DNA of 64,000 nt from a phage. Shown piece after piece: positions 1,233 to 15,095 of this stretch. The stretch is taken from the NCBI GenBank assembly GCA_036252695.1, contig GCA_036252695.1_4122.1. The stretch is one strand, 5' to 3'. The notes below the pieces were generated by a model that searched no databases, was not told where the DNA came from, and worked only from the letters and a program-made list of their open reading frames with translations. The translations under genes and the position numbers were made by a program. Each line of letters begins with the position of its first letter. Within the stretch, counting starts at the first letter, position 1.

Positions 1233-1299
1233 TTCAACATATAGACAGGGGAAGCTCCGTAGGGAAAGCATTGGACAGGCTTTAACATATGTTATATAT

Positions 1300-1346
1300 G
1301 TTAAAATTCAGCCTGCTCGACGTCTGAATTGTTAAAATTCAGCCTG
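1300..1346. repeat. direct repeat gttaaaattcagcctg x2
   Basis: Identical 16-mers at 1300-1315 and 1331-1346. Confidence 0.8.
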
Positions 1347-2359
1347 GACAAATGCGATCACTAGGATTCTCCCCAGGCTAAACCCCGTAATCATATGTAG
1401 TCATAAGTAATCATATATAAACATTTATATTAGCACCGTAGAATCACAGAATGATTATATATGATTCAGTACTGATTAGTATAGACAAGATTGCTCAAGA
1501 TTGCTCAAGAATGCTAGGGAAGGATTCAGTACTGCCCCAAAAGTATTCAGTACTGAAGGTGTCGATATCCCACTAAGTAGGCAGAGGAAGTCTGCCGTAC
1601 TTTGTAGTTTCCAAGCTCCTTTTCCATTTTGCAAATTACATCAAATGTAATCAAAAGTAATCACGCAATGATTAGTACTGAATTATTACTTTCACCTTAA
1701 TTACAATTACCCTTTTACCAGTCGGGGTAAAATTCAATTACCCCTTGAGGCTCCAGCAAAAAGTTGGTTAGTACTCCATCCTAAATCTCGATCCTAAAAA
1801 TTTTGGAGTACCTATGAAATAAAAGTTGGATCTTCGAAAGTTGAAATTTACGTTGGGACGTTTATGATTTGTGGGATATAATGATGTTTGTAGTCGGGTA
1901 GTTCTCAAGAATATCAGTACTGAAAGATGAAAGAAAGTTATTGACTTTATGATTCAGTACTGTATAATGTTCTACATAGCTTCAAGGGGTGATGAGTTGC
2001 TGCGAACAATTCATTTACTCTACCTACTGTCGTGAGACAGTACAGAAAAGATAGTTCCTCCTATTGGTGGTACATCTTTTTGAACCTCATATGAAAATCG
2101 TAATAACAGTACTGATATTAACAGAATGGTATCAGTACTGATTTTAATCTAAAGCATTATGCCACCAGCACAAGCTGGTGGATTCCCTCTAACAGTATTC
2201 AGTACTACATGATAGTCTTCATCCTCCTAGGGTAACATAGTGAGGGCTATGATGGCAGTACTGAATACTCCCTTTCAAAAGATAGATCTATGGTATAGTA
2301 CTGACGGATTTTGGGTGTAGTTACCCTGGGTGGATTTTGGACGTAGATATGTCTAGCCC

Positions 2360-2490
2360 TCCAGAAGTCTGGAAGTAAAGATGGCTATCCATCTAGACGG
2401 CTAAACGGCTAGATTTCTGGATGGCTAGACGTTTGGACGGCTAAACGGCTAGATGGTTACACGTCTGGAAGTATAGACGGCTAAATCAAA
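2360..2490. repeat. iteron-like interleaved direct repeats
   Basis: gacggctaaacggctagat at 2396-2414 and 2436-2454; agacggctaaatc 2475-2487; gtctggaagta 2367 and 2463. Confidence 0.7.
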
Positions 2491-3188
2491 ATTTTATTTT
2501 GTTTTTTCCAATAGTTCCCCTACCGCGTGGGGATAGTTTCCCCGCAGTATCTGGAGTTAGATTTTTCTGAATCTGGAATCATTATCTTATAAACTGGGGG
2601 CAATGTCAACGGCCTGGACGGATATTTTTAAAAATTTTTTTCAGTACTGAATTTTGGGCGTAACTATGCACCCGGTGGGCTTGAGTCTTTCTCGACTTGA
2701 TGGAACTATTATACAGTACTGAAAAAAATAAAGCAATACCCTGGAAGCAAAAAAGTTTTAATTAATTTGCTTGCTATCCTGGGCCGGACTATGGTACTAT
2801 ATTTCAGTACTGAGAAAGTGCGTTTACCTGCTAGGGTGCGGGAGTGTATCCTTTTTTTATATCTTGAATTTTGGGCGTAATTCCGCACCCTCTGGGGTTT
2901 CCGCTTTCTCGCGTCTATGTAGTAATTATACGCTTTTTCAGGATCAAGTCAATACCTAAAAACAAAATAATTGAAAATAATTTAACGCGTTTAAACGGCC
3001 CGTAAAGCCCTGGAATGATTGGAATGGTGCAAATGTATAGCTTAGGTGTATTAATGCGTTAGAATGCGTCTGAGGCCGTTTTATGGGGTGTAGTAGTGAT
3101 TTGGTTGATTCAGTACTGAATGATAGTACTGAATAATAGTTCCCCTATATAGAAAGAAAACTATTTTAAAAGTACATGTAGAAAGTAC

Positions 3189-3247
3189 TTGCAAACTATG
3201 TTTAAAGGCGTATAATGTTTTACATCGAGAGCGGGAACACTTCCCGC
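3189..3247 (+). promoter_or_regulatory. sigma70 promoter + 5' stem-loop cassette
   Basis: -35 TTGCAA 3189-3194, -10 TATAAT 3211-3216, hairpin gcgggaacacttcccgc 3231-3247. Confidence 0.75.
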
Positions 3248-3271
3248 TACACTTTAAAAGAGATTAATACG

Positions 3272-3634
3272 ATGGCGACCCAAATCAATAAAATTATTGC
3301 TAACCTGGTCAACTTCCGTGAAGAGATGAAAGGTCTTCCGGCTGAAACGGTAAAAATTCACATTTCAGCTTATCGGGAACTTATTACAATGTTGCCGCTT
3401 AAGCGTGAACAATACGCCGCTACCGTGATGCTTGATGCGATGATCCATAAGATGATCGCCAGTGATTTAACGATGGTTTATCAGTATATGGGCGAAAATT
3501 TCGCGGTGTATAGTAAACCAGTACCAGGAATGGAAAGTACAGAAGTATTACACGGTTTAAATTTAAAACAAGATGCATGGGATAATATGCCTCGTTTCCT
3601 GGTATGGGCTGACAGTGGCAAAATTTACGAATAA
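3272..3634 (+). CDS. hypothetical early protein
   Basis: ATG at 3272 downstream of promoter/hairpin; ORF track frame of 3215..3634. Confidence 0.65.
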   Translation: MATQINKIIANLVNFREEMKGLPAETVKIHISAYRELITMLPLKREQYAATVMLDAMIHKMIASDLTMVYQYMGENFAVYSKPVPGMESTEVLHGLNLKQDAWDNMPRFLVWADSGKIYE

Positions 3635-3648
3635 GTTTAATAAAGTAC

Positions 3649-3707
3649 TTGCAAACTAAGTTTAAAAGCGTATAATGTTTTACATCAGGTGGGGAATAGT
3701 TCCCCAC
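3649..3707 (+). promoter_or_regulatory. sigma70 promoter + 5' stem-loop cassette
   Basis: -35 TTGCAA 3649-3654, -10 TATAAT 3671-3676, hairpin gtggggaatagttccccac 3689-3707. Confidence 0.75.
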
Positions 3708-3727
3708 TATATAAGAGGATTAAAAAA

Positions 3728-3967
3728 ATGGCTAAATCAAAAATGTTCTTAGGTCACAAAAACAAAACTCATTGGAATGTAAGCCTTTGGATTAATAACG
3801 ATGAGGCATTGTATCGGCTGGCCCAGGACTTTATTGCCGCCAATACTAATCGTAATGATGCGGCCCGTCATATGATGCTATTTTTAGAACAGACTGGGCA
3901 AGATAAAACTCCAGACGGCTTTAAGTATAGCACTACTGCGATCCGTGCGGCGATGGTTGGAATGTAA
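3728..3967 (+). CDS. hypothetical early protein (paralog of 5770..6009)
   Basis: RBS aagagga; shares GHKNKTHWNVSLWINN and TPDGFKYSTTAIRAAMVGM with 5770 gene. Confidence 0.7.
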   Translation: MAKSKMFLGHKNKTHWNVSLWINNDEALYRLAQDFIAANTNRNDAARHMMLFLEQTGQDKTPDGFKYSTTAIRAAMVGM

Positions 3968-4055
3968 TAGAATAGAATTTATTTAAAGTACTATTGCACG
4001 GTGATAGTACTTTATAATAGTGTTTTATTCATACACCAACGATAAGGGCAACAGC

Positions 4056-4322
4056 ATGAATATTAAGTATTTTGCGACGCGTGAACAAGCTCGGATCGCC
4101 GCACGCCAGGACGGGGCAACGTTTAAAGATATGGGCGTACAATCGGAACGTGGTAAACGTTGGGCCATTGTAAAGCGTAGTACCGCCAGATCATTACAGT
4201 ACTGGTTAGCGGCCTTAAAAAGTCCCGATAGTGTATCGCGACGAGTGGTAGAAATAAAGCTCGACCGAAAGGGCAACCGCGTGACCGTGTACCGTACTAA
4301 AAAGATTGCAGTACTTGAATAA
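4056..4322 (+). CDS. hypothetical early protein (paralog of 17098..17493)
   Basis: FATREQARI...RKGNRVTVY shared with 17098 gene; upstream promoter has a 13-nt spacer (weak). Confidence 0.6.
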   Translation: MNIKYFATREQARIAARQDGATFKDMGVQSERGKRWAIVKRSTARSLQYWLAALKSPDSVSRRVVEIKLDRKGNRVTVYRTKKIAVLE

Positions 4323-4329
4323 AAAGTAC

Positions 4330-4388
4330 TTGCAAACTATGTTTAATGGCGTATAATGTTTTACATCGAGAGCGGGAACACTTCCCGC
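4330..4388 (+). promoter_or_regulatory. sigma70 promoter + 5' stem-loop cassette
   Basis: -35 TTGCAA 4330-4335, -10 TATAAT 4352-4357, hairpin gcgggaacacttcccgc. Confidence 0.75.
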
Positions 4389-4409
4389 CTATAACCTGGA
4401 GTAATAAAA

Positions 4410-4640
4410 ATGACTAATATGTATATGACTGAAGTTAAAACTGTAAAAGATACTACCACGAATAAAACTACTTACTTACAGCGGATCTGCGGTGTATGGC
4501 AACGTATCAGCAAATCAAAGTACTATAAATTAACATCATATGCAAACCGTTCGGATTCATTCAGTACTGAAATAAAAGGTAATAAAGTACACCAATACGG
4601 CACTTATTATTATTATAGCCTGGACGCGATTGCAGTATAA
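4410..4640 (+). CDS. hypothetical early protein
   Basis: RBS ctggagt; ORF track. Confidence 0.6.
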   Translation: MTNMYMTEVKTVKDTTTNKTTYLQRICGVWQRISKSKYYKLTSYANRSDSFSTEIKGNKVHQYGTYYYYSLDAIAV

Positions 4641-4887
4641 GCAGTTTACAAATCTTTACAATTGCCGGTATTGACTTATTTTGTCAGTACTGGCATAATG
4701 TATTCATTGGCAGATAAGCCGTAGCCCATAGGGTGCGGGAGTGTATCTATAGAAAAAGTAGTTTAGTATAGTTACAATTGTGCACCCGGTGGGTTAGCTG
4801 TTGTCATGGGGTATATTATGCCAGTACTTGATAATGCTGTCAATACTTTTTTAATATTCAGTACTGAAAACTATTTTTAAAAAGTAC

Positions 4888-4915
4888 TTGCAAACTATGT
4901 TTAAAGGCGTATAAT
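4888..4915 (+). promoter_or_regulatory. sigma70 promoter (upstream of conserved 80-nt leader)
   Basis: -35 TTGCAA 4888-4893, -10 TATAAT 4910-4915. Confidence 0.65.
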
Positions 4916-4921
4916 GTTTTA

Positions 4922-5000
4922 CATCAGGACGGGGAACGAAATAAGTAACTTCCCGTTAAGTAGCCCAGGAGTAAGGCACACGAAAAACTCCCCTGATAAA
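4922..5000 (+). ncRNA. candidate small RNA / structured leader, copy 1
   Basis: ~80 nt between two tandem promoters; near-identical copy at 15897-15976; no ORF. Confidence 0.25.
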
Positions 5001-5005
5001 ATAGT

Positions 5006-5035
5006 TTGACAAATGTTTTTTTAAAAGCGTATAAT
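5006..5035 (+). promoter_or_regulatory. sigma70 promoter
   Basis: -35 TTGACA 5006-5011, -10 TATAAT 5030-5035. Confidence 0.65.
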
Positions 5036-5067
5036 ACTTACATCAACTACTGAATGAGGGTTACAAA

Positions 5068-5679
5068 ATGAAAACTATCACTACTACTACTTATGTTATG
5101 GATTTTTCTGAATTGAACGCAGAACAAAAAACGTCAGCTATCGAACTGGTTCGGGATCGTGAGCGTTCATGCGGTGATTATTTCTTTTCTGAGGGCGTAT
5201 ACGAATACTATAAAGAAACAATTTTGCCGGAGTATGGCATTGATGACGCTGATTTGCAATTCAGTGGTTTTTGGTCGCAAGGTGACGGTGCATCAATTAG
5301 TACTGACCACGTTGACGCAGTGAAGTTTTTACGTAAGGTAAGAGCATTAACTAAGTATCGCTCAATCCGGCACCTGCTGAATGAAGATGATTTGGCGATG
5401 AGTGTAAAGCGTTATCACTACCACTACTCGCATGAGAATACTGTAAGCGGGTACATTGAATCGGCTTACACTGATTTAACCGCAAAACAAGAAACGTTAG
5501 TTAATGAGCTTGAGGAACTACTCACTGACACTATTCGTGAATTGTCCCGCAAGTTGTACCGTGATTTAGAGAATGCATATGAGGATCAATTCACTACTGA
5601 AAACATTACGGCACTGATTGAGGGTAACGAATATCAATTCAATGTTATTGATGGCGTAGTAGAATCAATCGAATATTAA
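5068..5679 (+). CDS. hypothetical acidic protein (203 aa)
   Basis: RBS gaggg; ORF track. Confidence 0.7.
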   Translation: MKTITTTTYVMDFSELNAEQKTSAIELVRDRERSCGDYFFSEGVYEYYKETILPEYGIDDADLQFSGFWSQGDGASISTDHVDAVKFLRKVRALTKYRSIRHLLNEDDLAMSVKRYHYHYSHENTVSGYIESAYTDLTAKQETLVNELEELLTDTIRELSRKLYRDLENAYEDQFTTENITALIEGNEYQFNVIDGVVESIEY

Positions 5680-5691
5680 TTTAAAAAGTAC

Positions 5692-5751
5692 TTGCAAACT
5701 AAGTTTAAAAGCGTATAATACTTTATATCGAGGCGGGGAGTGGTTCCCCGC
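5692..5751 (+). promoter_or_regulatory. sigma70 promoter + 5' stem-loop cassette
   Basis: -35 TTGCAA 5692-5697, -10 TATAAT 5714-5719, hairpin gcggggagtggttccccgc 5733-5751. Confidence 0.75.
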
Positions 5752-5769
5752 TCAAACGAGGATTTAAAA

Positions 5770-6009
5770 ATGGCTAGTACTAAAACTTACAACGGACACA
5801 AAAACAAAACTCATTGGAATGTAAGCCTTTGGATTAATAACGGTGAGTCATTGTATCGGCTTGCTCAAAGTTGCATCGCACAAAGTAGAACTAAAGATAT
5901 TGCAGCGGAATGTATGTACCGCAGATTAAAAGCCAACGGTACTACTACAACGCCGGACGGCTTTAAGTATAGCACTACTGCGATCCGTGCTGCAATGGTT
6001 GGAATGTAA
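5770..6009 (+). CDS. hypothetical early protein (paralog of 3728..3967)
   Basis: RBS gagga; identical C-terminal 19 aa to 3728 gene. Confidence 0.7.
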   Translation: MASTKTYNGHKNKTHWNVSLWINNGESLYRLAQSCIAQSRTKDIAAECMYRRLKANGTTTTPDGFKYSTTAIRAAMVGM

Positions 6010-6067
6010 TATTCAGTACTGTAACAATGGCGGGGAATGGTTCCCGCCTTTATTGAGGGTTTATCTA

Positions 6068-6328
6068 ATGAGTAAAGTAATTAACTATACAGTACTAAGC
6101 AAGTCATTATCTATCAGTCATTGCACCGATGGTTATTGGCTATTTGATGAAACGCGTGGCATGAATTTAGCTATGCGTGCAAAAACTGCTGAGGCGGCGT
6201 ATATTCAAGCACTGGAATACTACCAGGAACGTTTAAAGGAAGTAGAAGAAGATTATAAAAGCCTCAAAGCGAAAGTAGATCATTTCGTCGGTCAATTCAT
6301 CGAGGAAGACGACGACAAACAATATTGA
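6068..6328 (+). CDS. hypothetical early protein
   Basis: RBS tgagggt before ATG 6068; hairpin ggcggggaatggttcccgcc 6029-6048 upstream. Confidence 0.55.
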   Translation: MSKVINYTVLSKSLSISHCTDGYWLFDETRGMNLAMRAKTAEAAYIQALEYYQERLKEVEEDYKSLKAKVDHFVGQFIEEDDDKQY

Positions 6329-6336
6329 AAAAGTAC

Positions 6337-6396
6337 TTGCAATTAGTTTCAAGTACTGTATAATGGTTTACATCAAAGGGGGAAATGGTTCTCCCT
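6337..6396 (+). promoter_or_regulatory. sigma70 promoter + 5' stem-loop cassette
   Basis: -35 TTGCAA 6337-6342, -10 TATAAT 6359-6364, hairpin agggggaaatggttctccct. Confidence 0.75.
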
Positions 6397-6414
6397 GGTA
6401 ATGAGGAAAATAAA

Positions 6415-6636
6415 ATGGCTAATATCACTACTCTTTCCCAACTGGAAGCACTGGTTAAATCTATGCGGGAACATGCCGACAAAATCGGCGTACAAGATCC
6501 AGCCGTTTGCTTCTGCGACGAATTGAATGATGATACACTGGTAATAGCAGAAGTCCAGGACGTTTCTAACTATTCCTCGCGTTACACTGGCGGCGTAGCA
6601 AATAAAGGTGACTTCTGTTTATACCTTACAAAATAA
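6415..6636 (+). CDS. hypothetical early protein
   Basis: RBS gagga; ORF track frame. Confidence 0.65.
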   Translation: MANITTLSQLEALVKSMREHADKIGVQDPAVCFCDELNDDTLVIAEVQDVSNYSSRYTGGVANKGDFCLYLTK

Positions 6637-6640
6637 CAAC

Positions 6641-6671
6641 GCGGGGAGATAATAACTCCCCGTTACTTTTT
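6641..6671 (+). terminator. intrinsic terminator
   Basis: cggggag...ctccccg stem followed by ttacttttt. Confidence 0.55.
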
Positions 6672-6804
6672 CAGTACTGAATCATTTAATAGACGGATCT
6701 ATGCACCCGGTGGGTTAGTGACTGTTTCGTCTTGATGTAGTAATTATGCCAGTACTGGATGCACTTGTCAACAATTATTTTTCAAATACTTTTTATTAAA
6801 ATAC

Positions 6805-6859
6805 TTGCAATTAGTTTTTAAACGCGTATAATGTTTTGCATAGGGGGAGCGGTTCCCCT
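6805..6859 (+). promoter_or_regulatory. sigma70 promoter + 5' stem-loop cassette
   Basis: -35 TTGCAA 6805-6810, -10 TATAAT 6827-6832, hairpin gggggagcggttcccc. Confidence 0.75.
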
Positions 6860-6879
6860 GGTAACTAAGGAATAATAAA

Positions 6880-7137
6880 ATGCTTGAACAAATCAAATCA
6901 ACGTCTGCGAATGTAACGGGAACGGTAGCACACTTTACTAGTGATGAATCGCGGGGCGTTCCCTATTGTGCTGTACATGTAAACACTGAGGGTAACTACT
7001 GGTTTACGGTTTACGGATCATATTCATTTGGACGGCCAGGGCATCAAAAAATTCTGGATAAAGTACAACCAACGGGTAAAAATATCACTGCCGAAATGTT
7101 TTATAAAAATCATAAAGTACTTGATAATAGTTTTTAG
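6880..7137 (+). CDS. hypothetical early protein
   Basis: RBS aaggaa; ORF track. Confidence 0.65.
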   Translation: MLEQIKSTSANVTGTVAHFTSDESRGVPYCAVHVNTEGNYWFTVYGSYSFGRPGHQKILDKVQPTGKNITAEMFYKNHKVLDNSF

Positions 7138-7180
7138 TACTGTATAATATTTTACATCGCAAGGGGGAGCGGTTCCCCCT
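7121..7180 (+). promoter_or_regulatory. sigma70 promoter + 5' stem-loop cassette
   Basis: -35 TTGATA 7121-7126, -10 TATAAT 7143-7148, hairpin agggggagcggttccccct. Confidence 0.7.
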
Positions 7181-7199
7181 GGTAACTAAGGATAATCAA

Positions 7200-7499
7200 A
7201 TGAAAATTGCAATCATCGCCCTGGCTTTATCTGTTTCCTCTTTCGCTGTTAATGCGTCATTAGATGTAAGTAGTGAAAAATTCATTCAGTGCACTGTTGC
7301 AATGACCGATGAAAGAACTGGCGAGATTGTATTAAAGGATTTAGAGATCCAGCCAGAAGCATTTAAAAACGGGCCGTTCCATGAAGAAGACGAAAAAGGT
7401 AGCACGACAATTTATTACGATGCAAGTACTAAACGCGGTTCGGTCACTGTTATGGATACTGAGAAAGTAACTCATACTGGCGTTATTAATTGCCGTTGA
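7200..7499 (+). CDS. putative secreted/periplasmic protein with N-terminal signal peptide
   Basis: N-term MKIAIIALALSVSSFAVNA is signal-peptide-like (hydrophobic core, AxA-type cleavage site). Confidence 0.65.
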   Translation: MKIAIIALALSVSSFAVNASLDVSSEKFIQCTVAMTDERTGEIVLKDLEIQPEAFKNGPFHEEDEKGSTTIYYDASTKRGSVTVMDTEKVTHTGVINCR

Positions 7500-7520
7500 T
7501 AGATACTACGGGGTAACATC

Positions 7521-7751
7521 ATGACTAAGCGAATTGTTTTACTTAACGAAAGCAGTACTACACAACTACTTAACGCCGTGCATTATGATATTGAAACGAG
7601 CGTTAATCTTATCAGTACTGTAGTACTATTGGACACTGGAAAGGTCGCCAATGATAAAGCGATTGCAGGTATATTAACGGATCTTGAGCCTGGTAGCAGT
7701 GCACCAATAACGTTAAATGGTAAAGTGTTTAATATTTTACTCACTGATTAA
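7521..7751 (+). CDS. hypothetical early protein
   Basis: RBS gggg; ORF track. Confidence 0.55.
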   Translation: MTKRIVLLNESSTTQLLNAVHYDIETSVNLISTVVLLDTGKVANDKAIAGILTDLEPGSSAPITLNGKVFNILLTD

Positions 7752-7757
7752 GTACAT

Positions 7758-7786
7758 AGCCCACCTGGTGGGCTTTTTTGTTTTTG
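7758..7786 (+). terminator. intrinsic terminator
   Basis: agcccacctggtgggc hairpin + ttttttgtttttg. Confidence 0.8.
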
Positions 7787-7833
7787 TAGTATCGTAGTAC
7801 TGAGATACTTTAAAAATAGTTTTAAAAAAGTAG

Positions 7834-7861
7834 TTGACATTACCACAAAAAGGCGTAGAAT
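7834..7861 (+). promoter_or_regulatory. sigma70 promoter with ~120-nt leader
   Basis: -35 TTGACA 7834-7839, -10 TAGAAT 7856-7861; leader resembles the 4922 leader family. Confidence 0.65.
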
Positions 7862-7984
7862 GTATTACATCAAGACGGGGAGCACTAAGTAGACCGCCAG
7901 TAAGTCGAACGAAAAACTGGACACGTCGAGAAAACTTTGATACACTAATAAACGTAAACTAAACTTTAATTGAGGATTTATAAA

Positions 7985-8467
7985 ATGGCTAATGTAAAAT
8001 CATTCATCAAAGCACTGGTAGCAAATGAAACTAACGTAGCGGCAGAGATCCTGGCTGAACTGGATAACGATACCATGAAAGCGGTACGCAATAATTTTAA
8101 CATCGCTTACAGTACTGCGAAAGAACTACAAGCAAATAAAGCGGCAGAAATTGAAGCGGCAAAGGCGGCCCGTGAAGCAGAACTACAAGCAACAATTGAA
8201 AGTATCCAGGCGGCAGTAGTTGGATTGGATCTGGAAGTAGTTACAGAGATGGCACAAAAAGCCCTGGCGGTTAAGTATGGGGAAGACAAGCCAGAAGTAA
8301 AAGCCAAAAAATGGATTCAGGAACGCGTAGCGGTAGTACTGGACAACGGGGAAGAATATCTGATTCCGGTGCGTGGTAACTGCATTGCGGTAGTACTGGA
8401 TGCGATTAACTCCAGTGGTATGACTCGCGAGGAATGGATCGAAGCTCATCGCAAAGTGGAAGCATAA
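7985..8467 (+). CDS. hypothetical Ala/Glu-rich protein (160 aa, coiled-coil-like)
   Basis: RBS gagga; KAAEIEAAKAAREAELQA segment. Confidence 0.7.
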   Translation: MANVKSFIKALVANETNVAAEILAELDNDTMKAVRNNFNIAYSTAKELQANKAAEIEAAKAAREAELQATIESIQAAVVGLDLEVVTEMAQKALAVKYGEDKPEVKAKKWIQERVAVVLDNGEEYLIPVRGNCIAVVLDAINSSGMTREEWIEAHRKVEA

Positions 8468-8488
8468 CAATTAAAGTACTGAATCACT

Positions 8489-8516
8489 AGCCCACTGCAT
8501 AAGTGGGCTTTTTTGT
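8489..8516 (+). terminator. intrinsic terminator
   Basis: gcccact...agtgggc hairpin + tttttt. Confidence 0.8.
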
Positions 8517-8668
8517 GTTTATCGTTTACCAGGCCACCAGCACCGCCTAGAATCGATTCTAACGCATTAAACTGATTATCTGATGCATCGCCCTAGCTGG
8601 TGGCGTTAAGGTCGTTAGAATGCGATTGAGAGCGTTTAAAGTATTTTGCAAAAAGTAATAAAAAGTAC

Positions 8669-8727
8669 TTGCACGATTAAGAGATTAGCGTATAATGTTT
8701 TACATCGAGAGGGGGAAACGGTTCTCC
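8669..8727 (+). promoter_or_regulatory. sigma70 promoter + 5' stem-loop cassette
   Basis: -35 TTGCAC 8669-8674, -10 TATAAT 8691-8696, GC hairpin. Confidence 0.7.
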
Positions 8728-8751
8728 TTCCAAATCAAAGGAATTAAAACA

Positions 8752-8979
8752 ATGGCTATCGTAATCACTCGCGTAACTGGTACTACTGGCAATTCTTCTA
8801 CTGTTGCTGTAATTACTAATAAGAAAGGTGCGGAACTACATTTTGCAATGTATAACTGGTCAGTTGATGAGTTTGGTCAGTACGCTAGTGTAGAATACAT
8901 TGAAACCTATCAAGTGCCGTCGATTAGTTTAACTGATTTGGGCGTTGAGCGTATCCTTTGCCTGGATGAATTAAATTAA
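8752..8979 (+). CDS. hypothetical early protein
   Basis: RBS aaagga; ORF track frame. Confidence 0.65.
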   Translation: MAIVITRVTGTTGNSSTVAVITNKKGAELHFAMYNWSVDEFGQYASVEYIETYQVPSISLTDLGVERILCLDELN

Positions 8980-8987
8980 AAAAGTAC

Positions 8988-9047
8988 TTGCAAAGTAAAT
9001 CGAATAAAGTATAATACATTACATCAAGGGGAGAAATGGTTCTCCCT
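8988..9047 (+). promoter_or_regulatory. sigma70 promoter + 5' stem-loop cassette
   Basis: -35 TTGCAA 8988-8993, -10 TATAAT 9010-9015, hairpin ggggagaaatggttctccc. Confidence 0.75.
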
Positions 9048-9065
9048 GATAATGAGGAAACTAAT

Positions 9066-9209
9066 ATGAAAACTTGTCAATGTGGTAAAAAATCTATTAC
9101 TGGTTTAAAGCGGGGCGTTGCTCTTTGTCAGTACCATTATAATTTACAAGTATGGGGTAAAGAATGGGCCGACCAGGTGGAAGCAGCAAAGAAAGCAAAA
9201 AGTAAGTAA
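9066..9209 (+). CDS. small Cys-rich protein (47 aa; not in ORF track)
   Basis: RBS gagga; MKTCQCGKK...LCQYHYN; own promoter cassette. Confidence 0.5.
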   Translation: MKTCQCGKKSITGLKRGVALCQYHYNLQVWGKEWADQVEAAKKAKSK

Positions 9210-9288
9210 AAATATTATCACAGTACTATTGACATAGTTTGATAGTACTGACATAATAGATTTTATCAAGACAACTGAGGAAAATAAA
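9208..9288 (+). repeat. duplicated ~80-bp promoter module (copies at 9502-9590 and 12580-12662)
   Basis: aaatattatcacagtactattgacatagtttgatagtactg(a/g)cataata in all three copies. Confidence 0.85.
9229..9257 (+). promoter_or_regulatory. sigma70 promoter
   Basis: -35 TTGACA 9229-9234, 17-nt spacer, -10 CATAAT 9252-9257. Confidence 0.7.
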
Positions 9289-9501
9289 ATGGCTATCATC
9301 ACTAAAATCAAAGTAAGTAAAACCCTGGTTAAACTTGAACAAGTGAAAGCAGGTTATAAAGTATCTTGGTGCGGTATGTATCGGATGTTCGCAGATATTG
9401 ATGAAGCAATCAATTATTACAGCGACACGGTTAAAAACTTTGTTCGTGCTGATGTGGTTATGGCAGTGGCAACGCACAAAGCAGCGAAAGAAAGTAAGTA
9501 A
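9289..9501 (+). CDS. hypothetical early protein (MAII family; paralog of 12663..12842)
   Basis: RBS gagga; ORF track. Confidence 0.65.
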   Translation: MAIITKIKVSKTLVKLEQVKAGYKVSWCGMYRMFADIDEAINYYSDTVKNFVRADVVMAVATHKAAKESK

Positions 9502-9520
9502 AAATATTATCACAGTACTA

Positions 9521-9549
9521 TTGACATAGTTTGATAGTACTGGCATAAT
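9521..9549 (+). promoter_or_regulatory. sigma70 promoter
   Basis: -35 TTGACA 9521-9526, -10 CATAAT 9544-9549. Confidence 0.7.
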
Positions 9550-9590
9550 AGATTTTATCAAGACAACATATTAATTTAAGGAATACAAAA

Positions 9591-9914
9591 ATGGCTAAAA
9601 CTATCATTAACACCGTTTCCCTGGCTGCAATCCGTGCAATCAATGTTGACGGTAAACGTTGGACTGATTCATATGGCAATACTTATCATTCTTGTCATGT
9701 AAGCGTCGAACTGGATAACGGTTTGAATGATCTGGCGGTTGAATCATTTACTTATGGCTATGAAGATGCATATCAACAAACGGCGTTAGATCTATTAAAG
9801 GAATCAGTAGACGGGCTTAATACTGATGAAACCTCCCTTACTCGTTTGTGCAATGATCTTAATATCCCGTTGCATTGTACTGTACAGAATGTTAAACGCA
9901 AAAAAGATCTTTAA
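9591..9914 (+). CDS. hypothetical early protein (paralog of 16675..16998)
   Basis: Shares RWTDSxGNTYHSC...ETFTYGY...KRKKD with 16675 gene. Confidence 0.7.
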   Translation: MAKTIINTVSLAAIRAINVDGKRWTDSYGNTYHSCHVSVELDNGLNDLAVESFTYGYEDAYQQTALDLLKESVDGLNTDETSLTRLCNDLNIPLHCTVQNVKRKKDL

Positions 9915-9994
9915 TTAGCTTTACTTTATGCAGATACTTTGATATAGTGTCTGCATAGGGGAAAGAAATTAAATTAACTTAAGAGGAACGTATA

Positions 9995-10264
9995 ATGAAA
10001 AATATCAGTACTTTAATCGATGCAGGTACTCATGTTCGTCGGTCTATGGTTGCAACCAGTACTACAAAACAAGTAGCGAGCGGTTATCTTGTATTTGTGC
10101 ACGATGGTAAACTCCTGGAACGTTCAATCAATTTTGATGTTAAAAACAATTGCCGTTTTATTATCTTTAAGCGTGAACAATATAAAATTGATTTACCAGC
10201 GAAGCCCATAAGCGGGGCGTACAACGTGCAATCATTGTTTGAACGTCAACCATACACCTATTAA
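9995..10264 (+). CDS. hypothetical early protein
   Basis: RBS aagagga; ORF track. Confidence 0.6.
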   Translation: MKNISTLIDAGTHVRRSMVATSTTKQVASGYLVFVHDGKLLERSINFDVKNNCRFIIFKREQYKIDLPAKPISGAYNVQSLFERQPYTY

Positions 10265-10315
10265 TCAAAACATCGTTAGCGGTCGATTTAGGCCGCTTGT
10301 ATTGGGGATTATACC

Positions 10316-10486
10316 ATGAACGTTAATCAAGTACTGAATGAGATCGAAAGCATCATTAAACCAATGAAACGCATTGATGCTATGTTAACACCGGAAGAAT
10401 GCCGCCTTTATGAGCGTTACAGTGTGGAACAAGCCCAGGAAATGGCCCGTATCCGTCCGGTTGCCAGTACTGATAAGGCGGCGTAA
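10316..10486 (+). CDS. small hypothetical protein (56 aa; not in ORF track)
   Basis: RBS tggggatt; stop overlaps next start (TAATATG). Confidence 0.45.
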   Translation: MNVNQVLNEIESIIKPMKRIDAMLTPEECRLYERYSVEQAQEMARIRPVASTDKAA

Positions 10487-10487
10487 T

Positions 10488-10697
10488 ATGCTTACTGTAC
10501 AGGATAAGATCGACATCTTAAAGGTTAATATGTATGTGATTGATGCCGTACCTGGTAAAGTATTTGCATACGATGATTCTAATCGCAGTCCGTTTTATTG
10601 CAGTCATGTAGTTGGATACGTGCCGTTGGCGTATGTTATAGAAAGAGTGGTTGATGCAGCATACAAACATTTTTTAGAAAATAATACTTGCAATTAG
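10488..10697 (+). CDS. hypothetical early protein
   Basis: In-frame ATG at 10488 within ORF 10410..10697; coupled to upstream ORF. Confidence 0.5.
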   Translation: MLTVQDKIDILKVNMYVIDAVPGKVFAYDDSNRSPFYCSHVVGYVPLAYVIERVVDAAYKHFLENNTCN

Positions 10698-10746
10698 TTT
10701 TCAGTACTGTATAATGATTTACATCGAGAGCGGGAATAGTTCCCGC
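10688..10746 (+). promoter_or_regulatory. sigma70 promoter + 5' stem-loop cassette
   Basis: -35 TTGCAA 10688-10693, -10 TATAAT 10710-10715, hairpin gcgggaatagttcccgc. Confidence 0.75.
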
Positions 10747-10767
10747 CTCACTTTTAAGGAATATGAA

Positions 10768-10914
10768 ATGAAAGCATCAAAAAAGAGTAATACTAAGAAA
10801 GCATGTTCACCTTTCGCTGGGGTATTCCCTTTACGTTTTGTTGATGAAGTAGTTTCCTACCCGCCGGGCCTTACTCCTGAGATGGTAGAAAGTTTGCGTA
10901 AATCTAAAAAATAG
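10768..10914 (+). CDS. small hypothetical protein
   Basis: RBS aagga; ATG 10768. Confidence 0.55.
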   Translation: MKASKKSNTKKACSPFAGVFPLRFVDEVVSYPPGLTPEMVESLRKSKK

Positions 10915-10917
10915 TAC

Positions 10918-10974
10918 TTGCAATTAGTTTTTAGTACTGTATAATAGTTTACATGAAGGGGAAAACGTTCCCCT
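10918..10974 (+). promoter_or_regulatory. sigma70 promoter + 5' stem-loop cassette
   Basis: -35 TTGCAA 10918-10923, -10 TATAAT 10940-10945, hairpin aggggaaaacgttcccct. Confidence 0.75.
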
Positions 10975-10996
10975 TACACCTAACGAGGAAAGTATA

Positions 10997-11248
10997 ATGG
11001 AAACAATTTTAATCAAAGACACTGCTACTACTGTAACTTATGATAATGATTGCATTATCCCAGGGACTGAGTACGGCGAACGTGTACCCGTTCAAGTAGA
11101 GATTGATACCACATACATCGACAAGGCTGACCAGTGTATCACTATTGTAATTGGTGAATATCGTTTTCTACCAGAAGAGATCCAAAAATGGCAGAATATG
11201 ATTGACCGTGCGAAATTAGTCGCACAAAGTTTAAAATACAAAGTTTAA
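10997..11248 (+). CDS. hypothetical early protein
   Basis: RBS gaggaa; ORF track. Confidence 0.65.
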   Translation: METILIKDTATTVTYDNDCIIPGTEYGERVPVQVEIDTTYIDKADQCITIVIGEYRFLPEEIQKWQNMIDRAKLVAQSLKYKV

Positions 11249-11256
11249 AATAATAC

Positions 11257-11316
11257 TTGCAATTAGTTTTTAAACGCGTATAATGTTTTACATGAAGGGG
11301 AGAAATGATTCTCCCC
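11257..11316 (+). promoter_or_regulatory. sigma70 promoter + 5' stem-loop cassette
   Basis: -35 TTGCAA 11257-11262, -10 TATAAT 11279-11284, hairpin ggggagaaatgattctcccc. Confidence 0.75.
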
Positions 11317-11334
11317 AATAACAGGAGAAACAAA

Positions 11335-11487
11335 ATGAAACAATACAACGCTCGGTTTGATGTTACTATCGGTAACGGCAAAGGTCAATTCTCTTTCAGT
11401 ACTCGCAAAAGTTATACAGAAAACTTCCTGCGTAATTGTGCACTGACCGCCGCACAAATTAAACATTACTTTCAGGCTAAAAAATGA
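11335..11487 (+). CDS. small hypothetical protein
   Basis: RBS caggag; ATG 11335. Confidence 0.55.
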   Translation: MKQYNARFDVTIGNGKGQFSFSTRKSYTENFLRNCALTAAQIKHYFQAKK

Positions 11488-11573
11488 AATCATTAGCTTA
11501 TTACAGTTCGGCCCTGGTCGGTGCATTGATCGCGGCGTTGTTAGTAACCTATCTATTCTTTATGGTGATTTAA
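11484..11573 (+). CDS. 29-aa hydrophobic micropeptide (putative single transmembrane helix)
   Basis: ATGA overlap with upstream stop; MKSLAYYSSALVGALIAALLVTYLFFMVI. Confidence 0.35.
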   Translation: MKSLAYYSSALVGALIAALLVTYLFFMVI

Positions 11574-11717
11574 ATGAATCCAACAGGTTTAAACTATAAA
11601 AGTTGTTCGGCGTTTACGAAAGCAAATAAAGCGAATGCACGTAAAGCGAAAGTAAAGGAGTACATCAAGCAAGGCATGACGCGAAAGGCGGCGATTCTAA
11701 AAGCTAAAAATAAATGA
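11574..11717 (+). CDS. 47-aa basic micropeptide
   Basis: Starts immediately after stop of preceding micropeptide; Lys-rich. Confidence 0.3.
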   Translation: MNPTGLNYKSCSAFTKANKANARKAKVKEYIKQGMTRKAAILKAKNK

Positions 11718-11910
11718 AAAAAGTGGTTGACTCCGGTCAGCCATTTTGCTATTATATATTCATTGAGAGATAGCTCACTAGCCCACAGGGTGCATAAGTG
11801 TATCTATTATATAAGTATTGAGTACTGAAAACTATTTTAAAAAAGTACTTGCAAACTATCTCAATAAGCGTATAATGTTTTACATCGAAAGGGGAAACGG
11901 TTTCCCCTGG
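11717..11910 (+). repeat. dispersed ~190-bp intergenic module (hairpin/promoter + AGCCCAC box + promoter cassette)
   Basis: Near-identical to 19012-19205; contains TTGACT 11727-11732 / TATTAT 11750-11755 inside a hairpin, and agcccacagggtgc. Confidence 0.85.
11849..11908 (+). promoter_or_regulatory. sigma70 promoter + 5' stem-loop cassette
   Basis: -35 TTGCAA 11849-11854, -10 TATAAT 11871-11876, hairpin aggggaaacggtttcccct. Confidence 0.75.
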
Positions 11911-11927
11911 TAATAAGGAAACAAATC

Positions 11928-12269
11928 ATGACTATCTCAATTGCTCAATCTAACTTTGAAAACGAAATCATCGCCCAGGCACTGCGTTTAAATGATGGTC
12001 GGGCCGAAATTAATTACGGTTTCAATTCAGGCGGTTGTGAAAAATATCAGTACTTTGTAACGGCTGATGGCGGTGTCCTGGGTATCAATACAGTTATTGT
12101 AAACATCCAAAAAATTAATTTCAATGATCCAGACGATAGCCAGTTTTACATCACTGGCGTAGACGTGAACTATGAGGATGACTCACTAACTGATGATCAC
12201 ACTGGCGAGCGGTTAGAAAGTGCATACGGTGAAGATGATTATCAGTCCGGTCCAGAAGATTTCGAATAA
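11928..12269 (+). CDS. hypothetical acidic protein
   Basis: RBS aaggaa; ORF track. Confidence 0.65.
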   Translation: MTISIAQSNFENEIIAQALRLNDGRAEINYGFNSGGCEKYQYFVTADGGVLGINTVIVNIQKINFNDPDDSQFYITGVDVNYEDDSLTDDHTGERLESAYGEDDYQSGPEDFE

Positions 12270-12284
12270 TATAAAAAAAATAGT

Positions 12285-12344
12285 TTGACAATAGATTATA
12301 GTACTGTATAATAGTTTACATCAAGGGGAGAAAAACTTCTCCCC
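12285..12344 (+). promoter_or_regulatory. sigma70 promoter + 5' stem-loop cassette
   Basis: -35 TTGACA 12285-12290, -10 TATAAT 12307-12312, hairpin ggggagaaaaacttctcccc. Confidence 0.75.
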
Positions 12345-12366
12345 ACTAACAGAGAGAGAAAACAAA

Positions 12367-12579
12367 ATGGCTAATATCCGGTCGAAATTAAAAAATGCAA
12401 AACAAGTTTTATTTTCAGATCATGAATACTTTAATAAAGATATTACAGGAGTTACAAGTATCAAGGAAGTAAAAGAAAAAACCGGCGTTTTGTGTGATGT
12501 GCGATTAGTTGGGACATTTGGGAATAACGTGCTATATCGCTGCGGTGATTACAATTTTACACTGACTATCATTAACTAA
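12367..12579 (+). CDS. hypothetical early protein
   Basis: RBS agagaga; ORF track. Confidence 0.6.
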   Translation: MANIRSKLKNAKQVLFSDHEYFNKDITGVTSIKEVKEKTGVLCDVRLVGTFGNNVLYRCGDYNFTLTIIN

Positions 12580-12598
12580 AAATATTATCACAGTACTA

Positions 12599-12627
12599 TT
12601 GACATAGTTTGATAGTACTGACATAAT
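12599..12627 (+). promoter_or_regulatory. sigma70 promoter
   Basis: -35 TTGACA 12599-12604, -10 CATAAT 12622-12627 (third copy of the 9208 module). Confidence 0.7.
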
Positions 12628-12662
12628 AACTTTTATCAACTACACTACTAAGGAATTAAAAA

Positions 12663-12842
12663 ATGGCTATCATCGCAAAAACTGAAATCGTTGGTCTGGA
12701 TTCTATCATCATGACGTTTGAAGATCAAAAAGGTATGTATGTAGTTTCCTATGGTGATTATGTTCGGGAGTATGAAACGGTAGACGAAGCCTTTGAAAGT
12801 TATATTCGCCAGGTGAATAAAGCATACGACGACTACCGCTAA
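12663..12842 (+). CDS. small protein (59 aa; MAII family; not in ORF track)
   Basis: RBS aaggaa; MAIIAKTEIV... resembles 9289 gene N-terminus. Confidence 0.5.
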   Translation: MAIIAKTEIVGLDSIIMTFEDQKGMYVVSYGDYVREYETVDEAFESYIRQVNKAYDDYR

Positions 12843-12869
12843 AATATATTACCAGTACTATTAAATCTA

Positions 12870-12897
12870 TTGACAACGTTTGATAGTACTGTATAAT
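12870..12897 (+). promoter_or_regulatory. sigma70 promoter
   Basis: -35 TTGACA 12870-12875, -10 TATAAT 12892-12897. Confidence 0.7.
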
Positions 12898-12941
12898 AAG
12901 TTTTATAAACAGTAGTTAACTTAACCTAAGAGAGAAATAAA

Positions 12942-13085
12942 ATGATCGCACTGGATTCATTCATCGACGCAGTACTGGCAAAAACTGGCGAGGATCTGAC
13001 CGCAGAACAATACGCGATGATCGAGCAATGTCAGCAAAACGGTAAATCGGTGAAAGATACTGTTAAGATTATCCGCAAGATGTAA
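12942..13085 (+). CDS. small hypothetical protein (47 aa; not in ORF track)
   Basis: RBS aagagaga; terminator-like hairpin follows. Confidence 0.45.
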   Translation: MIALDSFIDAVLAKTGEDLTAEQYAMIEQCQQNGKSVKDTVKIIRKM

Positions 13086-13091
13086 GATTAT

Positions 13092-13125
13092 AGCCCACTG
13101 GTTAACGCTGGTGGGCTTTAATCAT
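13092..13125 (+). terminator. possible intrinsic terminator
   Basis: agcccactgg...ctggtgggct hairpin; weak T tract. Confidence 0.4.
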
Positions 13126-13190
13126 TTACCCTATACAATGCCAGTACTAAACCGTTTATCTCGTTAGAATGCGTTACAGGACGTTTAACA

Positions 13191-13388
13191 ATGATTAGCA
13201 TGAAATCAGTACAAAAACAAATAGAAACATTATCAAAAATTAAACGTAAACAATACTCCTTAGAATATACAATCAATGGTAACTATCATCTAATGAAAGA
13301 AAATAATTTTATAGTCATTGATGAATCATTGCAAATTATTAGTATAGTACTGAAAGCATTAATCAATGACAGAAAAAAATTAAAATAA
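13191..13388 (+). CDS. hypothetical AT-rich small protein
   Basis: ORF track; weak RBS; composition differs from neighbours. Confidence 0.35.
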   Translation: MISMKSVQKQIETLSKIKRKQYSLEYTINGNYHLMKENNFIVIDESLQIISIVLKALINDRKKLK

Positions 13389-13392
13389 TCTA

Positions 13393-13421
13393 TTGACAAT
13401 ATCCTCCAGTACTGGCATAAT
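13393..13421 (+). promoter_or_regulatory. sigma70 promoter with ~300-nt leader
   Basis: -35 TTGACA 13393-13398, -10 CATAAT 13416-13421. Confidence 0.6.
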
Positions 13422-13481
13422 ACTTACATCAAGACGAGAACGTCACTAACCCATAGGGTGCACAAATGTAACTATATAATA

Positions 13482-13558
13482 TCGATCAATAAATGATCAA
13501 AAAAGTACTGGATCAATTTAGCATAAGGAGTATAATTCTGATCAATTCTTGATCAAAG
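13482..13558. repeat. cluster of five GATCAA motifs (Dam-site cluster)
   Basis: GATCAA at 13484, 13495, 13511, 13540, 13551. Confidence 0.7.
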
Positions 13559-13717
13559 GCAATAAACGCAGTTGAATTTATATAGACAATACGAAGGCGT
13601 TACTATCCGTGGTAATGCTGGTGGATATGTAGTATCATGTGGTTTGAATAAGATTAGCACTAGTAGTATTATTGTAGCATTACAGTACTATAGTATTTTT
13701 ATAATGAGGTTAAAATA

Positions 13718-13975: not shown

Positions 13976-13981
13976 AAAGTA

Positions 13982-14009
13982 TTGACAGTACTGAAAGATA
14001 GTGTATAAT
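13982..14009 (+). promoter_or_regulatory. sigma70 promoter
   Basis: -35 TTGACA 13982-13987, -10 TATAAT 14004-14009. Confidence 0.7.
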
Positions 14010-14038
14010 ATTTTATATCTTAACTGAGGATAGTAATC

Positions 14039-14395: not shown

Positions 14396-14398
14396 TAC

Positions 14399-14466: not shown

Positions 14467-14473
14467 AATGAAA

Positions 14474-14662: not shown

Positions 14663-14687
14663 TATTAACTCAATAGGAAAACGATAA

Positions 14688-15011: not shown

Positions 15012-15017
15012 AAACTA

Positions 15018-15076: not shown

Positions 15077-15095
15077 CAGTACTGAGGAAAGAAAA

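Follow-up and report, generated by a model that had tools for sequence, protein, structure and literature searches.

The 64,000-nucleotide stretch of phage DNA analysed here in full (the window; GenBank assembly GCA_036252695.1, contig GCA_036252695.1_4122.1) contains, at positions 1233–3214, a 1,982-bp gap between a 68-aa open reading frame (ORF) that ends at 1232 and the first early gene, which begins at 3215. A preliminary description, made from the letters alone, had called this region free of credible ORFs and proposed it as a candidate replication origin or packaging region. The absence of genes is borne out: the longest ORF within the gap has 62 aa, and its seven ORFs of 41–62 aa gave no PHROGs or Pfam match at E ≤ 0.1. 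An Rfam covariance-model scan of the region returned a single, chance-level miRNA match (E = 0.83), and a tRNA search of it returned none. The manual annotations of G17, PBECO4, 121Q, BF17 and fEgEco12 leave the region without genes; pipeline annotations of relatives place 5–8 tiny ORFs in it.

Forty-two phage records match the region at 90–98% identity, all of them from ~350-kb jumbo phages of the PBECO4/121Q/G17 group, genus Asteriusvirus, and by this measure the window belongs to an Asteriusvirus, that is, a PBECO4/G17-like jumbo coliphage. In Asteriusvirus records of 366–384 kb the region is present twice. In G17, positions 1–20,668 recur 350,149 bp further on, at 350,150–370,817, with 0 mismatches, and the inner edge of this terminal repeat falls inside the ORF-free gap. 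Seven deposited genomes with terminal repeats start or end exactly at window base 1576: the first base of BF17, fEgEco12, ELP-22, E9.1, CRJP21 and Ec-M-J is the same as the reverse-complemented end of G17 and corresponds to window 1576 (AGTAGGCAGAGGAAGTCTGCC...). The ends of G17 were derived from read coverage (PMC6563267); for fEgEco12, PhageTerm gave a repeat of 20,993 bp and restriction digests confirmed the end fragments (PMC13070987); for Sharanji, PhageTerm gave a repeat of 20,668 bp (PMC11895373). The record of Ec-M-J itself annotates a terminal repeat. The other boundary of the repeat, placed through the end of the G17 repeat, maps to window 22746/22747 (a slash between bases or positions marks a cut or boundary).

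Alignment to these genomes shows the physical genome end, as placed by homology, at 1575/1576, where a direct terminal repeat of 21.2 kb (1576–22746) has its left boundary. Since the end falls at 1576 in seven records, the region straddles this boundary and consists of 343 bp of unique DNA (1233–1575) and the first 1,639 bp of the repeat. The remainder of the repeat carries small early genes, many with their own sigma-70-type promoter cassette upstream; the first cassette (3182–3216, plus strand; AAAGTACTTGCAAACT...TATAAT) drives the first gene of the repeat. In replicating DNA the region would join unique sequence (left of 1575) to a single repeat copy at 1576–22746, and in the virion base 1576 would be the first base of the DNA molecule. 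Terminus analysis, which had been named beforehand as a way in which the preliminary description could fail, favours its packaging half, as the physical end lies inside the region. We consider it probable that an Asteriusvirus genome has one of its physical ends here, and that 1233–3214 is the non-coding junction and leader across this left repeat boundary, operating along the lines proposed below.

Cut sites at the two ends of the repeat

The left cut site (1570–1577, plus strand) reads CCACTA/AG, with the end between 1575 and 1576. At the right boundary (22740–22753, minus strand) the top strand reads GTAACCT/TAGCGAC (22746/22747), and the bottom strand, TCGCTA/AGGTTAC, presents the same cut motif in inverted orientation; the two boundaries of the window thus carry 5′-RCTA/AG-3′ on opposite strands. 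We compared the junctions in genomes with independently determined ends, namely Asteriusvirus, Muenster, fENko-Kae01 and CBB. On the top strand, the left boundary is CCCACTA/AGTAGG in the window, GCCACTA/AGT in G17 and Muenster, and CCGCTA/TATC in fENko-Kae01 and CBB; on the bottom strand, the right boundary is TCGCTA/AGG in the window, TGGCTA/AGG in fENko-Kae01, GTGCTA/AGC in Muenster and TCGCTA/AGC in CBB. RCTA directly precedes the cut at every boundary compared; the left end has it on the top strand, the right end on the bottom strand. By a rough estimate, the left and right motifs would match by chance with a probability of ~0.005.

The presence of RCTA on opposite strands at the two ends is the geometry expected if one nuclease nicks both, leaving 3′-OH ends that face into the repeat. 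We infer that the terminase complex recognises the junction and that the packaging nuclease would cut a single strand at each RCTA/AG site, nicking the top strand on the left and the bottom strand on the right. With both 3′-OH ends then facing into the repeat, strand-displacement synthesis would duplicate it, and each packaged genome would carry one repeat copy per end. Repeat duplication from inward 3′-OH ends is the classical Watson/T7 scheme.

RCTAAG occurs at 45 sites in the window, and the cut site is the only one of them within 1233–3214; with so many sites, other determinants must contribute to the cut. Candidates are clusters of AGTACT palindromes and the terminal inverted repeat. In all genera compared (Muenster, fENko-Kae01, CBB and G17) the palindrome (ATT)CAGTACT(G) clusters 12–21 nt before the left cut, and in the region TTCAGTACTG sites stand just before the cut at 1468, 1528 and 1549. 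The first 26 nt of the repeat (1576–1601, plus strand) form an inverted repeat that folds into a 10-bp hairpin from nucleotide 1 (−6.9 kcal/mol; z −4.4), and fENko-Kae01 starts with a perfect 8-bp terminal hairpin whose sequence is unrelated to that of the window. The palindromes flanking the cut and the terminal hairpin would together mark the site. At the other end, the last 70 bp before the right boundary (22678–22746; TTGACTTTTTT...GGACTATGGCAAAATG...) are recognisably conserved in fENko-Kae01 and CBB and do not fit sigma-70 spacing.

We considered whether T5 shares the RCTA/ cut motif and rejected the idea, as the T5 boundaries carry a motif of their own. In the T5 record (AY587007; 111613/111614 and 10139/10140) this motif is inverted inside the repeat, with /TGTCCAC on the top strand at its start and /GATCCAC on the bottom strand at its end. 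The T5 cut sites thus have a different motif but the same inverted logic; we know of no report that describes this apparent inverted motif.

On the unique side, the flank at 1233–1575 is rich in repeats. It holds a 17-nt direct repeat (1299–1315 and 1330–1346), which the preliminary description had found and given as 16 bp; GTAATCA-type 10-bp repeats at 1387–1415, with a second block inside the leader at 1640–1663; three copies of CAAGATTGCT (1486–1515); and the three TTCAGTACTG sites given above. Every repeat named in that description was recovered in the region by repeat search and TRF. Its remark on dense AGTACT holds for the density and fails for the specificity. In the 64 kb there are 255 AGTACT sites where 17.1 ± 3.7 are expected, a 15-fold excess; the density is 9.1 per kb in 1233–3214 (18 sites), 8.9 per kb in 1–1232 and 6.0 per kb in 3215–22746, and the segments of the window free of AGTACT are 22747–27200 and 30801–38300. 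Given the similar densities upstream and downstream, the enrichment is a property of most of the window and not of the region, and we rejected AGTACT as a region-specific signal. Only the extended palindrome CAGTACTG is commoner here, accounting for 12 of the 18 sites in the region, compared with 56 of 237 elsewhere in the window.

AGTACT sites lie, for example, at 3184, 4883, 6352, 7136, 10703 and 14414. Two recurring contexts are tied to promoters: AAAGTACTTGCAA immediately precedes the −35 box, and the spacer beside the −10 box contains CAGTACTGTATAAT or CAGTACTGGCATAAT; many other sites lie inside genes. In the tandem Tyr-rich small ORFs at 47–1232, which repeat the motif KEYYISK, some sites arise from Glu-Tyr-Tyr codons (GAG TAC TAT), so that part of the excess there is coding. 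AGTACT may be the site of a regulator; to our knowledge, no host factor is known to bind ATTCAGTACTGAAT.

Modules of the leader and the 8-bp array

Within Asteriusvirus, 5.0% of the alignment columns are variable in the leader (1576–3075), compared with 14.8% and 11.3% in the next two genes, and pairwise identities are 97.4–98.7% for the leader and 94.0–97.7% for these genes. The comparison shows the leader to be under stronger constraint than the neighbouring genes, which argues for functional non-coding DNA rather than decayed genes. Length variation among Asteriusvirus leaders is concentrated at 1626–1675, 2376–2425 and 3076–3175 and mostly involves whole units, whose length is 10 bp for the GTAATCA repeats, 8 bp for the array described below and ~13 bp for the AGTACTGAATAAT repeats. 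Beyond the genus, the records of Muenster (Alcyoneusvirus), fENko-Kae01, BF (Eneladusvirus), CBB and XbC2 (Mimasvirus) start at the homologous end, and each of these five phages has a leader of 1.3–1.8 kb without a convincing gene. Although nucleotide similarity is mostly lost, the leader modules recur across the five relatives, counted as six genera together with Asteriusvirus. Their order is kept and their distances from the end are alike, with not every module detectable in every genome.

Reading inward from the end, GAAGTC at +12 is common to the window, G17, BF and CBB, and CCTTTTTTCA follows at +43 to +49. An inverted repeat at 1771–1811 (GTACTCCA...TGGAGTAC around CCTAAATC repeats) has near-identical blocks in fENko-Kae01, Munch, 7t3, CBB and XbC2; across phages this module reads ...TTTTGGAGTAC. 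Promoter P1 (1941–1968, plus strand; TTGACT-16-TATAAT, sigma-70-like, scoring 11/12) faces into the genome 366 nt from the end, and strong P1-like inward promoters, read by eye, lie at +268 to +366 in BF, CBB, XbC2, fENko-Kae01 and Muenster. A 20-codon ORF with a Shine-Dalgarno-like AAGGGG (MSCCEQFIYSTYCRETVQKR; 1991–2053), spotted by eye 3′ of P1, has no counterpart after P1 in BF or Muenster. The hairpin at 2162–2181 (plus strand; CCACCAGC-ACAA-GCTGGTGG; z −4.0), an ARNOLD terminator in the G17 annotation, has the same stem with a different loop in fENko-Kae01 (CCACCAGC-N4-GCTGGTGG) and would end a non-coding P1 transcript of ~200 nt. Two copies of GGATTTTGG(G/A)YGTAG (2306–2349, plus strand) stand just before the array, with the related GAATTTTGGGCGTAA at 2649 and 2866. 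This motif also lies 5′ of the array in BF and CBB, and XbC2 has only GACGGATTT there; the order is GAATTTTGGGTGTA and then the repeat array.

On the other side, the array adjoins an AT-rich tract (2483–2509), which contains the only IHF-like site of the region (2484–2496). It is followed by what we call module E (2504–2551): TTTTCCAATAG...CCGCG, a hairpin at 2528–2544, then GCAGTATC. Module E lies 813–930 nt from the end in the five genomes whose leader could be read from the terminus. Its flanks are conserved and its stem varies by genus: the stem differs in every genus compared, being identical only in the congeners BF and fHe-Yen9-04, yet it always pairs, and stem positions 2–5 pair in all six lineages with two or three pair types each. 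Pairs were counted by script; MAFFT could not put the variable hairpin in register. A stem that varies but keeps its pairing points to selection for structure.

Further inward, an outward promoter (2581–2609, minus strand; TTGACA-17-GATAAT, 11/12), with counterparts read by eye in fENko-Kae01 and CBB, reads leftward, in the direction of module E and the AT-rich tract and, beyond them, of the array and the genome end. An 80-nt element is present twice (2635–2714 and 2852–2931; 71% identical), each copy ending in a minus-strand −10 box; a weak plus-strand promoter (2767–2800) lies between them, and another minus-strand promoter, also scoring 11/12, lies at 2952–2925. A long inverted repeat pairs AGGGTGCGG (2833–2841) with CCGCACCCT (2883–2891). 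Of the whole region, only the segment 2635–2931 shows conservation of its DNA sequence in the Klebsiella phages RaK2, K64-1 and Muenster. Relatives have a promoter followed by a long inverted repeat AGGGTGC...GCACCCT at +1001 to +1280, and this inverted repeat occurs in all the leaders compared. In an RNAalifold analysis of seven homologues of 2790–2935, the core stem was invariant and the covariation term only −1.1; with a core that never varies, covariation says little, and we claim no structured RNA there. An IMG/VR scan with CCGCACCCTCTRGGGT for further homologues of this inverted repeat returned 30 loci, the real ones being fHe-Yen9-04 and BF only and the rest chance matches. Pieces of the 80-nt element and inverted repeat recur between early genes at 4730, 6673–6760 and 19082 (AGGGTGCGG; TTCAGTACTGAA...GCACCCGGTGGG...GTAGTAATTAT). 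The tandem 13-bp repeat at 3112–3140 (plus strand; AGTACTGAATAAT, 2.2 copies) is the most indel-prone spot among relatives. As for the promoter-like elements and hairpins reported earlier, three promoter sites are strong (11/12), but the number of such sites, 14, is not above that in shuffled sequences (10.8 ± 2.7), and several hairpins of the region do exceed shuffles (z −4.0 to −5.0).

The array itself (2347–2482) is periodic at 8 bp, with 13 contiguous in-phase units at 2379–2482 and strong in-phase units at 2347 and 2363. The preliminary description had spoken of iterons; the repeats are real (GACGGCTAAACGGCTAGAT occurs twice, at 2396–2414 and 2436–2454, 40 bp apart), but 8-bp units are better described as an array resembling met-boxes. 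TRF reports periods of 8, 16, 32 and 40 over 2393–2485, with a base period of 8 bp and only 76% matches for the 40-bp super-period. The array is 138, 146, 154 or 162 bp long in close relatives, which thus differ by whole 8-bp units. Phased as AGACGGCT/AAACGGCT/AGATTTCT/GGATGGCT/AGACGTTT/... (slashes here separate units), the units resemble the met-box AGACGTCT, the consensus of the 8-bp boxes that the MetJ repressor binds in tandem (PMC3228920).

To score the units we used the published MetJ matrix and thresholds, by which a site has at least two adjacent 8-bp boxes, each with at least one quarter of the consensus bits and together with at least the consensus total, the threshold being 12.58 bits (PMC3228920). 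By these rules 2379–2482 scores as a MetJ site of 13 boxes in one phase, with 97.0 bits in total and a mean of 7.46 bits per box, a value reached by only 0.095% of all 8-mers. Elsewhere in the 64 kb the longest run has 2 boxes, and shuffled windows give at most 2–3. As controls, the same script found 4 boxes with 31.2 bits in the E. coli metJ/metB operator and 4 boxes with 24.9 bits in the metF operator. The array thus resembles MetJ operators in its 8-bp register, in the T/A step at unit junctions and in its bits per box (7.5 on average, compared with ~6.2 for metF and 7.8 for metJ/metB). It differs in having 13–15 units, where metF and metJ/metB, the E. coli operators scored, have 4 each, and in its location: it overlaps no met-gene promoter, there is no met gene nearby, and the nearest promoter (2609–2581, minus strand) starts ~90 nt away.

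BLAST searches with this array alone, or with an Aeromonas phage array, retrieved 79–96 records that fall into three groups. The first comprises RaK2-like jumbo phages. The second comprises T5-like phages of Vibrio, Aeromonas and Providencia, in which the array stands beside T5-type DRD repeats (Pontus, AhSzq-1) or, in Providencia PR1, at 9.6 kb, near the end of the left repeat of T5-like phages (~10 kb). The third is a few T7-like phages of 42–46 kb, and in two of these, PGT2 and KPV811, the array starts ~40–70 bp from the record end. These other phages have 7–28 met-box-like units in one phase, up to 28 boxes and 221 bits in AhSzq-1. MetJ is limited to the Enterobacterales, Pasteurellales, Vibrionales, Aeromonadales and Alteromonadales (PMC3228920). 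The metJ gene is present in E. coli K-12, and 95 of the 96 array-bearing records have hosts in three of these five orders, the exception being XbC2.

A met-box array is absent from Muenster and fENko-Kae01. These two have clusters of Fur-box-like matches instead (at most 5 mismatches to GATAATGATAATCATTATC), most of them in the slot of the array, immediately upstream of module E: 6 matches in Muenster and 3 in fENko-Kae01 where 0.17 and 0.12 are expected. The matches lie at 787–837, 1073–1097 and 1306 in Muenster, the latter two outside the slot, and at 711–800 in fENko-Kae01. BF and fHe-Yen9-04 have one Fur-box-like match each, inside the loop of the long inverted repeat.

Parallels with other phages and competing explanations

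The region falls with the terminal-repeat boundary regions of T5 and T7. In T5, Repeat Region 3 is 1.2 kb long, untranslated and mostly inside the repeat, extending 270 bp into unique DNA (Davison, bioRxiv 10.1101/866236; AY587007). It lies at the inner end of the left terminal repeat, contains DnaA boxes, paired within blocks of inverted repeats, and is a candidate injection-stop signal (bioRxiv 10.1101/866236). The region described here is likewise untranslated on a kilobase scale, dense in direct and inverted repeats and palindromes, and mostly inside a long terminal repeat. It too overruns the boundary by ~300 bp (270 bp in T5, 343 bp here), has dispersed short repeats on both sides of it and has sites, here predicted, for a host DNA-binding protein, and its met-box-like array recurs in T5-like phages of Vibrio, Aeromonas and Providencia. 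Unlike T5, however, the region has no DnaA boxes, DRD repeats or IRC/IRD pairs and lies upstream of the repeat's genes, and T5 itself has no met-box array.

The left end and concatemer junction of T7 reportedly have the layout set out by Dunn and Studier in 1983. According to the annotation of NC_001604, the terminal repeat is followed by CCTAAAG arrays, leftward A0, rightward A1–A3 and then gene 0.3. The parallels are a precise end, short-repeat arrays, leftward and strong rightward host promoters and an inward first early gene, and T7-like PGT2 and KPV811 add a met-box-like array near the record end. The scale differs, with a repeat of 160 bp in T7 and 21 kb here, and a leader of 0.9 kb and 1.6 kb, respectively. 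We also considered the irregularly spaced CCTAAAG arrays as met-boxes and rejected them, as they do not score as such. In T7, transcription helps to draw the phage DNA into the cell. A third parallel is PA5oct, a distant jumbo relative, in which the genes of a 39-kb terminal repeat are highly transcribed early and two abundant non-coding RNAs map there (PMC7318152). There, as here, a long terminal repeat serves as the early region, and PA5oct has transcribed ORF-free stretches; PA5oct has no sequence similarity to the region.

Inward of the cut at 1575/1576, the remaining 1.6 kb would organise early events at the DNA end during infection. Its parts would be the strong inward host-type promoter ~370 nt from the end, the outward promoters, the structured hairpin module and the met-box-like array. 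The array looks like a very long binding site, as predicted from its letters, for the host methionine repressor MetJ, and its 13 units would most likely load a cooperative filament of the host MetJ–S-adenosylmethionine (SAM) repressor. Such a filament might form a barrier that separates the end from the outward promoters, anchor the DNA or halt its entry in the manner suggested for T5, ratchet the DNA into the cell, or act as a sink for the repressor. The simplest reading of the slot as a whole would be an array for an abundant host DNA-binding protein, with the identity of the protein exchangeable. Its contents would be met-boxes in Asteriusvirus, Mimasvirus, Eneladusvirus, the T5-like phages of Vibrio, Aeromonas and Providencia and some T7-like phages, Fur-like boxes in the Klebsiella jumbo phages and DnaA boxes in T5. 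We therefore advance a tentative proposal, possible in our view but short of probable: the array may be a 13-unit MetJ operator, and arrays for host metabolite sensors may be an interchangeable module at the terminal-repeat boundaries of at least three unrelated phage families, laying a cooperative filament of host protein at the genome end.

Several points weigh against this interpretation of the region and its array. The terminus of this particular genome is transferred by homology, from seven aligned Asteriusvirus genomes with a leader identity of 97.4–98.7%. The shared cut motif is short and unable to define a site alone, and the covariation of the long inverted repeat at 2833–2891 is weak. 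In the array, G stands at unit position 6 in 8 of the 13 boxes, compared with ~10% of natural boxes, an over-representation that sets it apart from MetJ operators. Finally, the array also occurs in XbC2, a phage closely related to CBB whose listed host, Xanthomonas, has no MetJ: the XbC2 record (1–1725) starts at an end homologous with those of CBB and BF and contains 14 met-box-like units. Either the natural hosts of XbC2 include Enterobacterales, or the array would be independent of MetJ.

The same features have been weighed under other explanations. Were the region a replication origin, the array would bind an initiator, the AT-rich tract would melt and the leftward promoter at 2609–2581 would activate or prime synthesis, as in T7 or T4 origins. 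The arrangement would fit, with the array directly beside a 27-bp AT-rich tract that has an IHF-like site, an 11/12 promoter reading into that tract and a structure-conserved hairpin between the two. GC skew is also negative in 1–2000 and positive afterwards; however, the change coincides with the Tyr-rich ORF block and is not traceable upstream of the window, which starts only 1.2 kb before the region, so the skew is uninformative. There are 0 DnaA boxes in 1233–3214, the units are 8 bp and not the 17–22 bp of iterons, and no initiator-like gene is adjacent. Two T7-like phages have the same array within ~40–150 bp of a record end, and T5-like phages have it close to the repeat boundary; the origins of T5 itself were mapped near the genome centre (Davison, bioRxiv 10.1101/866236), and the Klebsiella relatives hold Fur-box-like arrays in the same slot. 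Nothing specific thus supports the origin half of the preliminary description, and we regard an origin here as distinctly unlikely. Decay offers another account, in which the region would be made of decayed or frameshifted genes or remnants of early cassettes with no function of their own. It does contain cassette-like fragments, such as AATAGTTCCCCTA at 2510 and 3135, and automatic pipelines call small ORFs in it. But these ORFs have no family matches, the region is more conserved than the neighbouring genes, and the leaders of relatives are also ORF-free with module order and spacing kept; conservation of the leader in effect excludes gene decay, to which we give almost no credence.

Two further explanations also build on a bound host protein, one making the region an entry stop and the other a repressor sink and nothing else. 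In an injection stop or anchor of the T5 type, a host protein on the repeat-rich region would hold the entering DNA so that the genes of the terminal repeat are expressed first. The position matches that of T5 Repeat Region 3, also untranslated, repeat-rich and at least 1 kb across the repeat boundary; met-box arrays stand beside DRD repeats in Pontus and AhSzq-1 and at 9.6 kb in Providencia PR1; and sites for host proteins recur in such regions (DnaA in T5, Fur-like in Muenster and fENko-Kae01, met-boxes here). Against this, the region has no DnaA boxes (TTWTNCACA) and no DRD repeats: the DRD repeat GTGCAAATCCGACA has 0 matches in it at up to 3 mismatches, and 3 in the whole window where 4.45 are expected. 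Moreover, the early genes read away, which puts the region upstream of them, and not at the distal end of the segment that enters first, unless the opposite end leads, two-step DNA transfer is not reported for these jumbo phages in the literature searched, and the T5 signal is itself still a hypothesis. Taken together, these points make a T5-type stop unlikely. As a sink, the array might instead soak up MetJ and de-repress host methionine and SAM synthesis, its position at the end being incidental. Thirteen boxes with per-box scores equal to those of real operators, present in two copies per genome and many genomes per cell, would suit such a role, as would the long arrays of other phages (9–28 boxes), and the parallel Fur-box-like arrays of the Klebsiella phages would de-repress iron uptake. 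A sink leaves unexplained, however, why three or more phage families have their arrays close to genome ends or terminal-repeat boundaries and why the array keeps its fixed position just upstream of module E, and as the whole explanation it seems quite improbable.

Overall, the terminal repeat (~20 kb) and its coordinates were already known from GenBank records and papers, and the literature searched holds no description of the non-coding leader, the cut motif, the cross-family array or its met-box character, nor any mention of MetJ boxes in phage genomes. What is gained for jumbo phages is exact cut positions for their ends, a shared cut motif whose inversion agrees with one particular model of repeat duplication, and a map of conserved non-coding modules open to deletion or exchange. 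Engineering of these phages, which are therapeutic candidates, requires knowledge of their true ends and cis elements. The idea that the host repressor MetJ is loaded onto phage genome ends can be tested cheaply. If MetJ does bind, one principle would link the T5 'injection-stop' region, the end arrays of T7-like phages and the leaders of jumbo phages, and these phages would be reading or manipulating the methionine/SAM state of their hosts.

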